6,421 bases of DNA from a virus (IMGVR_UViG_2740892235_000009), one strand, 5' to 3'; shown: positions 1,098 to 1,478, counted from the first letter of the stretch. Numbers and translations are program-made. Notes: generated from the sequence alone by a model not told the origin.

Positions 1098-1102
1098 TGG
1101 AC

Positions 1103-1171
1103 AAAAAAAGCCCGCGCTGGGAGACGCGGGCGGCAAGGAATAAACAATAAAACGTGAAGTAATACTTCAAC
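1103..1171 (-). ncRNA. Leader module, copy A: candidate ~70-nt U/G-rich small RNA on the minus strand (plus-strand reading is the alternative)
   Basis: Minus-strand promoter-like TTGCGC (plus 1202-1207), 18-bp spacer, TATTAT (plus 1178-1183). Minus-strand intrinsic terminator: hairpin GCCCGCG / CGCGGGC (plus 1110-1131) followed on the minus strand by U7 (plus A-run 1103-1109). Predicted RNA 5'-..ACUUCACGUUUUAUUGUUUAUUCCUUGCC + hairpin + U-tail. Conserved in all three leader copies. Plus strand of the same segment is CA-rich (AAUAAACAAUAAAACGUGAAGUAAU), so strand assignment is open. Confidence 0.4.
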
Positions 1172-1478
1172 TGGCGAATAATACCCGACAGTAATCACGC
1201 TGCGCAATAGCGTGGCCTTTTTCGAATTGCGGGCTGTAGTCTCCCTTCTGCCGGGTGTCCTGGTTGCAGATTTCTTCATGGGGTAGGGTTCGGCAGTTAA
1301 AGCAGCGATGGCGCTGGGGCGTCGTGCAACTGGCGTTGAGCTGGATACCGGGCGTTTTGAACAGACTGCGCAGGAAATCAGGGATGTATTTAGCGGGAGC
1401 GGTTTGCAGAAGTAATCTCCCAAAATGCCATTTTTGGAATATACTGGTATTAAGTCTTTTTGCTAAGGTTAATTCAAA

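Follow-up and report, generated by a model that had tools for sequence, protein, structure and literature searches.

The window analysed here, a 6,421-nucleotide (nt) stretch of viral DNA (IMGVR_UViG_2740892235_000009), contains three copies of an element, each of which is very probably a minus-strand gene for an Hfq-binding, base-pairing small RNA (sRNA) of the EcOnc08/EcOnc21/EcOnc42 kind. The element is EcOnc08/EcOnc21/EcOnc42 of enterohemorrhagic Escherichia coli (EHEC) Sakai, E2348C_1409.E2348C_1408.IGR of enteropathogenic E. coli (EPEC), and ncR1641710 of strain EDL933. The locus, its Hfq binding, and its partners have already been published, and the finding is real, not new. The additions made here are modest: a shared promoter platform and an allelic relation with AsxR/AgvB, the prediction of a promoter (P2), a complementarity to dppA that is lost in seed variants, and the absence of the element from Rfam.

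We propose the following mechanism. The sRNA gene occupies the “moron” slot in the late region of lambdoid prophages, flanked by nanS-p and a plus-strand gene of the STnc100 type. Transcription would run towards STnc100 and end at a GC-rich hairpin and U-tract abutting the STnc100 terminator, from two likely starts: P2, giving a predicted RNA of 69 to 70 nt (80 nt in the copy named B4), and P1, giving an RNA of ∼180 to 200 nt. The product would be a prophage-encoded, Hfq-dependent, trans-acting sRNA that acts on core and virulence mRNAs via two seeds. Seed 1, UUUGUUGUUU, in a single-stranded stretch, would pair with a CA-rich element of the dppA 5′ untranslated region (5′ UTR), and seed 2, CCUUGCC, with GGCA(A/G)GG in the cfa 5′ UTR, pcm, tir, and others. 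The regulation could take the form of either repression or activation.

A reading of the window from sequence alone (the sequence-only reading) had proposed a minus-strand sRNA that runs convergently to the cassette (an STnc100 gene) and is antisense to the leader of nanS-p, with a plus-strand RNA as the alternative. The first proposal is supported by published data on homologous loci from UV cross-linking and analysis of cDNA (CRAC), Northern blotting, RNA sequencing (RNA-seq), and RNA interaction mapping through ligation and sequencing (RIL-seq), while the plus-strand alternative is without support as an RNA gene. The copies in Sakai prophages Sp4 and Sp15 and in E2348/69 prophage PP6 align over the whole module, and the published peaks, probe, and sequences map onto the element. 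In Sp4, the Hfq-CRAC peak EcOnc08 lies on the minus strand at 1179938-1180010 (five of five data sets) and EcOnc21 at 1180016-1180101 (three of five); EcOnc42 lies in Sp15 (Tree et al. 2014, Table S2, PMC4104026). The sRNA predicted in Sp4 spans 1179936-1180005 (locus L003, 937-1006) and coincides with the EcOnc08 peak, the EcOnc05 probe having served to check the Sakai coordinate frame. As the Northern probe for EcOnc08/21/42 is plus-strand sequence that spans the −10 to −35 region, it detects minus-strand RNA; the RNA seen with it is about 271 nt long (PMC4104026). In EDL933, ncR1641710 was reported from RNA-seq as a minus-strand transcript with 213 reads per kilobase per million mapped reads (Neuhaus et al. 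2017, PMC5331693). Its 114 nt correspond to the leader read on the minus strand: they begin ∼28 nt upstream of the nanS-p ATG and stop immediately short of TATTAT. The EPEC sRNA is given as 182 nt on the minus strand of PP6 at 1444797-1444978, with EcOnc08/EcOnc21/EcOnc42 named as its EHEC homologues (Pearl Mizrahi et al. 2021, Table S6, PMC8550237), and the E2348/69 locus is identical to the Sp4 type across the sRNA. RNA-seq and Northern evidence therefore exists, at homologous loci, for RNA extending upstream of P2. Later literature lists EcOnc42 without an assigned function. A search of a library of papers for literal sequence strings of the element gave no match, and Rfam has no family for it. 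In the published accounts consulted, there is no mention of the P2 promoter as a shared one, of an allelic relation to AsxR/AgvB, or of the complementarity to dppA.

A covariance model (model R1), built from 17 variants of the element, found three full-length minus-strand copies in the window and nothing else significant:

1103-1172, minus strand: sRNA copy A (model R1, 100.5 bits)
3842-3921, minus strand: sRNA copy B4, 80 nt (model R1, 68.6 bits)
4916-4985, minus strand: sRNA copy C, in the Stx2 phage segment, with a predicted P2 start at A4985 and a U-tail 3′ end at ∼4917 (model R1, 100.2 bits)

On the Sakai copies the same model scores 97.9 to 103.7 bits. The three copies are paralogues, A and C being 92% identical and B4 81 to 86% identical to either; UUCCUUGC is duplicated in B4, which by its sequence is a divergent variant of the element. 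Copy A is truncated, as the sequence-only reading had stated: its leader diverges after ∼1255, where it is fused to a DNA-methyltransferase pseudogene, and neither P1 nor nanS-p follows, with P2, the sRNA, and the terminator all kept. This arrangement argues that the P2 unit is functional alone.

The 3′ end of each copy is formed by a minus-strand intrinsic terminator (1131->1110, 3871->3849, and 4944->4923), each followed by T6 to T9:

1110-1131, minus strand: terminator of copy A
3849-3871, minus strand: terminator of copy B4, stem AACCGCUCUU/GGAGCGGUU
4923-4944, minus strand: terminator of copy C, GCCCGCGU/CUCCCA/GCGCGGGC followed by U6

The window as a whole has 21 terminator-like sites, compared to 5.7 ± 2.1 in shuffled sequences. 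In each copy a GC-rich hairpin is directly followed by the U-tract, and the stem is maintained by compensatory change, including in B4, where the stem had been noted to differ and still pairs. Among 20 distinct homologues, both partners change in three of the eight stem pairs, and pairing is kept in 96.9% of cells, compared to 19 to 60% in controls with slid partners. The terminator of each sRNA copy stands back-to-back with a plus-strand STnc100 terminator. Folding predicts the terminator hairpin plus an open seed region (z-scores of −2.3 to −5.1), with the stretch CACGUUUUGUUGUUUAUUCCUUGCC mostly unpaired. The four pairs of a small 5′ hairpin (UGAA/UUCA) are invariant, so covariation provides no evidence for or against their pairing.

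Upstream of each copy lies the motif TTGCGC-N18-TATTAT, which we designate P2. It occurs exactly three times in the window, always on the minus strand (1207->1178, 3956->3927, and 5020->4991), against a chance expectation of 0.01, and three matches were found in 0 of 200 shuffles:

1178-1207, minus strand: P2 of copy A (−10 at 1178-1183, −35 at 1202-1207)
3927-3956, minus strand: P2 of copy B4 (−10 at 3927-3932, −35 at 3951-3956)
4991-4996 and 5015-5020, minus strand: −10 (TATTAT) and −35 (TTGCGC) of P2 of copy C, the −35 inside a plus-strand hairpin

The sequence-only reading had reported the motif as conserved in all three copies, and it is not lost from homologous leaders elsewhere: in 56 distinct haplotypes drawn from IMG/VR prophage contigs, both hexamers have zero diversity, while 12 of the 18 spacer columns vary. 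Diversity of the sRNA body in these haplotypes is approximately half that of its flanks. The minus strand of the AsxR, AgvB1, and EcOnc03 loci has TTGCGC-N18-TAAAAT, in which −35 and spacer length agree with those of P2. The Rfam-defined 5′ ends of AsxR and AgvB are 6 nt past the −10, and primary 5′ ends have been mapped by RNA ligase-mediated rapid amplification of cDNA ends (Tree et al. 2014, PMC4104026). By analogy with the AsxR/AgvB starts, we infer P2 starts at A4985, A1172, and ∼3921, and the P2 product would then be 69 to 70 nt long, or 80 nt for B4 with its duplication.

The plus-strand hairpin followed by a T-run, also described in the sequence-only reading, is present at 1199-1216, 3947-3964, and 5013-5028:

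5013-5036, plus strand: hairpin of copy C, CTGCGCAACTGCGCGG, followed by CCTTTTTCG; left edge of the leader common to AsxR-type phages
3947-3964, plus strand: CCTTGCGCAACTGTAAGG, hairpin of copy B4, with a T-rich run after it; pairing register different, in our reading, from that of A and C

Hairpin and T-run are kept in every slot allele, in B4 in that other register, and the module might on this basis be chiefly a plus-strand leader or attenuator for nanS-p that stops STnc100 read-through in lysogens, with the minus-strand signals incidental. We consider this highly improbable, as it leaves unexplained the compensatory changes in the terminator, the Hfq-bound minus-strand RNA, and the RIL-seq partners, and the interval from the STnc100 terminator to the hairpin has no plausible promoter on the plus strand. 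An attenuator would also be compatible with an sRNA gene and cannot replace it.

Two candidate seeds lie in the open region upstream of the terminator stem:

4955-4965, minus strand: seed 1 of copy C, UUUUGUUGUUU, the polymorphic GU-rich run, with a perfect 10-nt complement of the dppA 5′ UTR site
1142-1152, minus strand: seed 1 of copy A, variant UUUUAUUGUUU
3890-3900, minus strand: seed 1 of copy B4, variant UUUUGUUAUUU
4945-4951, minus strand: CCUUGCC, seed 2 of copy C, which complements the target motif GGCAAGG
1132-1138, minus strand: seed 2 of copy A

Over 10 nt the polymorphic run complements perfectly the CA-rich site AAACAACAAA, which lies 31 nt upstream of the start codon of dppA, a match equalled in 14 of 2,000 shuffles. 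For the local duplex with dppA, the predicted energy is −17.6 kcal/mol in the C/Sp4 type, weakening to −11.4 in copy A and −12.6 in B4, and the variable columns of the open stretch are concentrated, among homologues, in the seed 1 run. The sequence-only reading had placed a putative seed at these point differences. The three variants that it quoted are correct and the run does complement dppA, but the second seed, CCUUGCC, which is nearly invariant, was overlooked. Its description of a 70- to 80-bp U/G-rich segment also stands in part: the minus strand is U-rich, with the core CGUUUUGUUGUUUAUUCCUU, but the composition is looser than that wording implies, U+G being ∼59% over the 41 nt before the terminator stem by our own count.

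These seeds correspond to published partners of the EPEC sRNA. In the RIL-seq tables, as far as they list its Hfq-dependent chimeras, the cfa 5′ UTR has 767, the dppA 5′ UTR, the second most abundant partner, 197, and pcm 118, with emrA and the virulence mRNAs tir, perA, and espC also present; all partners in the part of Table S3 covered here are mRNAs, and in the chimeras listed the sRNA is always the second RNA and the chimeras end within its last ∼35 nt (PMC8550237). The target motif is given as GGCA(A/G)GG (Fig. S5 and motif table; PMC8550237), and GGCAAGG occurs in the cfa and pcm RIL-seq fragments.

The same data bear on whether the RNA could act mainly in cis. It is fully complementary to the nanS-p leader and convergent with the late operon, there are up to seven leader-matching places per genome, and its polymorphisms fall in the exposed stretch. 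It might thus be chiefly a cis (or sister-prophage) antisense regulator of the Q-antiterminated late transcript that tunes nanS-p and the lysis genes, by perfect pairing with the nanS-p leader or by transcription collision, the seed polymorphisms giving self/non-self specificity among co-resident prophages. We regard this as improbable. As far as listed, the RIL-seq partners are core and virulence mRNAs encoded in trans; copy A has been kept although no nanS-p leader lies downstream of it; and the P2 product would fall short of the nanS-p Shine-Dalgarno sequence and start codon, while the P1 RNA starts ∼28 nt upstream of the ATG.

Several points weigh against a short, trans-acting sRNA made from P2. 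The published sizes of 114, 182, and ∼271 nt all extend upstream of P2, the short product being a prediction, and the Northern probe, which spans the −10 to −35 region, is therefore blind to a product starting after the −10. P2 matches the sigma-70 consensus at three of six (TTGCGC) and five of six (TATTAT) positions with an 18-nt spacer and fails a simple promoter scan. Its −35 is inside the conserved plus-strand hairpin, so that invariance of the −35 could reflect the hairpin and not promoter use, and since the sequences compared are closely related prophage copies, their conservation is weak evidence. RIL-seq chimeras show that two RNAs were close together on Hfq and do not demonstrate regulation. 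For dppA, cfa, and pcm, duplex energies computed over whole fragments were no better than those of shuffles, and among the target-pairing tests only the contiguous 10-nt dppA match stands out. In addition, a duplexfold scan for trans targets inside the window gave nothing above shuffled sRNAs.

A second minus-strand promoter-like site, P1, overlaps the nanS-p start codon and passes the promoter scan, as it does in Sp4:

4047-4075, minus strand (4075->4047): P1 of copy B4, ATGCCA-17-GATAAT, overlapping the nanS-p start at 4069
5117-5145, minus strand: P1 of copy C, ATGTCA-17-GATAGT, overlapping the nanS-p start at 5139; read by homology with B4 and Sp4

P1 fits the 5′ end of EDL933 ncR1641710, which maps just downstream of the homologous site, and the distance from P1 to the terminator is ∼197 nt (about 180 to 200 nt), near the 182 nt given for EPEC. 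The locus might produce one long antisense RNA only, from P1 or from further upstream inside nanS-p, with P2 inactive and no ∼69-nt species. The long published sizes (∼271 nt with a probe over P2, 182 nt in EPEC, and a 114-nt unique EDL933 transcript that ends before the −10) and the result of the promoter scan, which P1 passes and P2 fails, speak for it, and we consider it possible but unlikely. Copy A is without P1, yet its P2, sRNA, and terminator are intact. The spacer of P2 varies whereas its hexamers do not, primary 5′ ends of paralogous alleles that share the −35 and spacing map 6 nt after the −10, and in copy C the −10 of P1 is degraded to GATAGT. Further, the CRAC peak over the short sRNA is the stronger and the more reproducible one, seen in 5/5 data sets compared to 3/5 for the upstream EcOnc21.

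The slot is one in which other Hfq-binding RNAs are found. AsxR, AgvB, and EcOnc03 occupy the same position, with the moron on one side and nanS-p on the other, converge with an sRNA of the STnc100 type, and share with the element the TTGCGC −35, the 18-nt spacer length, a terminator abutting the STnc100 terminator, and Hfq binding; the AsxR-type leader is common with the element from window position 5013 onward. The element itself lies in Shiga toxin-type prophages in the moron slot, which is downstream of PR′ and upstream of nanS-p, and it too faces an STnc100-type sRNA convergently. AsxR has been described as 282 bp 3′ of, and antisense to, stx2AB, and identity with AsxR/AgvB was our first guess from that description (282 bp 3′ of stx2B, antisense), but the published sequences and Rfam models do not match. 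The Rfam models of AgvB (RF02702) and AsxR (RF02703) gave no match in the window at an E-value of up to 1; in positive controls on their own Sakai loci they scored 96.5 and 56.6 bits (AgvB) and 88.1 bits (AsxR), with nothing at the Sp4 slot. The conserved ∼42-nt 3′ region of AsxR/AgvB (GUAUCUCAUGC..UUGCCCGAACCCAYUCGGGC) was not found in the window. Conversely, model R1 gave no significant match in the AsxR, AgvB, and EcOnc03 loci, with no detectable homology of the RNA bodies in sequence or structure. Since neither model set matches the other's loci, the element represents a sequence family of its own that shares the slot. In a phage BLAST search, 933W-type phages share only window 5013-5138 (aligning from query position 103), and 4911-5012 is therefore swapped as a unit that is bounded on the right by the −35/hairpin.

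These comparisons also bear on whether the element is a member of the AsxR/AgvB anti-sRNA family that sponges a core sRNA instead of acting on mRNAs. The common slot, convergence with STnc100, −35, spacing, and general plan point that way, as do rare alleles (POCJ13 and PhiR12_3) with a variable 5′ part and a conserved 3′ part. Such membership is nevertheless very improbable: the Rfam AgvB/AsxR models, which score 56 to 96 bits where AgvB and AsxR themselves lie, give no match in the window or Sakai Sp4, model R1 is without a match to AsxR-type loci, the RIL-seq partners listed are mRNAs, not sRNAs, and the GU-rich seed probably resembles GcvB's own seed, not a GcvB target. The cis role, the AsxR/AgvB-like sponge, and the plus-strand attenuator all rank below a trans-acting sRNA.

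The rare alleles mentioned above are in Shigella phage POCJ13 (locus L311, 400-500) and phage PhiR12_3 (locus L312, 400-510), with 33.8 and 59.7 bits, respectively, for model R1. Both keep TTGCGC-N18-TATTAT, the UUGUUU.UUC.UUGCC stretch, and the terminator, and their 5′ parts are unrelated; the plan recalls the variable-5′/constant-3′ design of AsxR and AgvB. AgvB1 of Sakai Sp10 (locus L125, 640-682) carries AACAACACAACAA, which is partly complementary to the GU-rich seed of the element, so AgvB might sponge the element besides GcvB in strains with both, e.g., Sakai.

More tentatively, we suggest that the slot is a cassette-exchange platform and that the EcOnc08 type is a prophage mimic of the GcvB seed that binds dppA directly, a proposal that is doubtful as it stands. 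A fixed −35/hairpin and a terminator abutting STnc100 would frame exchangeable bodies (AsxR, AgvB, EcOnc03, the EcOnc08 type, and the POCJ13/PhiR12_3 alleles). If so, the EcOnc08 type would be the functional mirror image of AgvB, which mimics the dppA site to sponge GcvB; the G-to-A seed changes of copies A and B4 (a cost of ∼5 to 6 kcal/mol on dppA) would retune or release the target; and AgvB could sponge an EcOnc08-type sRNA too where both are present. The dppA CA-rich element is presumably the site used by GcvB. The RNA is common in pathogenic E. coli and adjoins stx2 in some Stx2 phages, and demonstration of a promoter platform in common with AsxR/AgvB, together with convergence with AgvB on dppA, would help to explain how prophages residing in the same host rewire its nutrient uptake.

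Of 5,426 complete E. coli genomes, 937 contain 80% or more of the 228-bp module, which occurs in up to seven places per genome. The element is the commonest slot occupant among the IMG/VR loci fetched, a sample biased towards it by the specific pattern of the first scan. An exact-pattern scan of 185,579 species-representative genomes gave no match, and a looser pattern gave chance matches only, the flanking features being present in 0 of the 120 matches sampled. A sequence (GGTAATGACTCCAACTTACTGATAG...) that is presumably an IS1 end breaks the sRNA gene after CACGUUUUG in one IMG/VR prophage contig.

The window is not one contiguous locus; it is a composite of three unrelated segments joined by runs of ten N at 4413-4422 and 6110-6119. 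Positions 1-4410 are contiguous in chromosomes of Shiga toxin-producing E. coli, e.g., NZ_CP027584.1, where the annotated order is antiterminator Q, DNA methyltransferase, tRNA-Ile, tRNA-Arg, a TolA-like gene, the methyltransferase pseudogene, a helix-turn-helix (HTH) regulator, a SASA-family esterase (nanS-p), holin, and lysozyme. The segment 4423-6109 has the stx2B 3′ end (to 4627) and then nanS-p (start at 5139), and the last segment, 6120-6421, repeats part of nanS-p (cf. 5872-6109). Six plus-strand STnc100 genes, which are the “cassettes” of the sequence-only reading, were called by Rfam at 119 to 172 bits (RF02076 gathering score, 47):

890-1102, plus strand: STnc100 (RF02076), convergent partner of copy A
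2862-3057, plus strand: STnc100 (RF02076)
3121-3330, plus strand: STnc100 (RF02076)
3392-3590, plus strand: STnc100 (RF02076)
3652-3841, plus strand: STnc100 (RF02076), convergent partner of copy B4
4702-4916, plus strand: STnc100 (RF02076), convergent partner of copy C

Four of these stand head-to-tail in 2862-3841, each with its own terminator, and the minus-strand sRNA follows the last one only. In E2348/69 PP6 (locus L322, 300-500), only the 3′ part of the STnc100 gene adjoins the sRNA and an ISEc13 transposase gene is annotated upstream, from which the 5′ part was apparently lost to insertion of the insertion sequence; according to RIL-seq the sRNA is still expressed there despite the curtailed STnc100. 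Window positions 1-72 match the Rfam tRNA model at 45 bits and represent a tRNA gene, annotated as tRNA-Arg in the matching genome, of which the 3′ part is present and the 5′ end cut off; owing to this truncation ARAGORN does not call it. At 1251-1415 the copy A leader, cut at ∼1255, runs into a remnant that RefSeq labels a DNA-methyltransferase pseudogene; the junction looks like a recombination scar that has duplicated the STnc100/sRNA module inside one prophage. Downstream of copy A are an AraC-like HTH gene (1479-2204) and a 92-amino-acid open reading frame (2294-2572).

Other identities were considered and rejected. Of the Pas sRNAs, PasA/PasC lie between nanS-p and the holin gene and PasD is an STnc100 homologue; none is the element. 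OmrA-B (RF00079) scored 22.6 bits against a gathering score of 40 (E-value, 0.68) and resembles the element in the terminator only; with rli32 and anti-hemB it makes up the weak Rfam matches (19 to 23 bits), which are due to chance or to the terminator only. Spot 42 has in common the 11-mer UUACUUCACGU (window 4966-4976, minus strand; locus L190, 236-246), which we take as a coincidence, since by a rough estimate such a match across all E. coli sRNAs has a chance of ∼0.1 to 0.3; in Spot 42 the 11-mer presumably straddles a stem.

Compared with the RNAs that share its slot, the element differs in the −10 (TATTAT, compared to TAAAAT in AsxR/AgvB/EcOnc03), in predicted RNA length (69 to 80 nt, compared to 51 to 60 nt for AsxR/AgvB), and in its partners, those listed being mRNAs, whereas AsxR/AgvB have core sRNAs (FnrS and GcvB). 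GcvB (with its R1 seed) is a core sRNA that represses dppA, oppA, and other transporter mRNAs. The element resembles it in that a GU-rich single-stranded seed would pair with the CA-rich element of the dppA 5′ UTR, a top partner in the RIL-seq list, but it is a presumably unrelated, prophage-encoded, and much shorter RNA and has a second seed, CCUUGCC. Lambda oop and P22 sar are short phage RNAs convergent with and complementary to a phage mRNA that act in cis, whereas the documented partners of the element, as far as listed, are trans-encoded host and virulence mRNAs. STnc100 (RF02076)/PasD, the latter placed as a prophage sRNA of the late region (Zhu et al. 2026 preprint), belongs to the same late region and is the immediate convergent neighbour, but it is on the opposite strand, unrelated in sequence, ∼200 nt long, and highly structured. 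Finally, the literature on EcOnc08/21/42 and the corresponding loci treats the element as an unnamed candidate of 114 to 271 nt without an assigned function, and compared to those published loci the window carries three variants, including the divergent B4 type.

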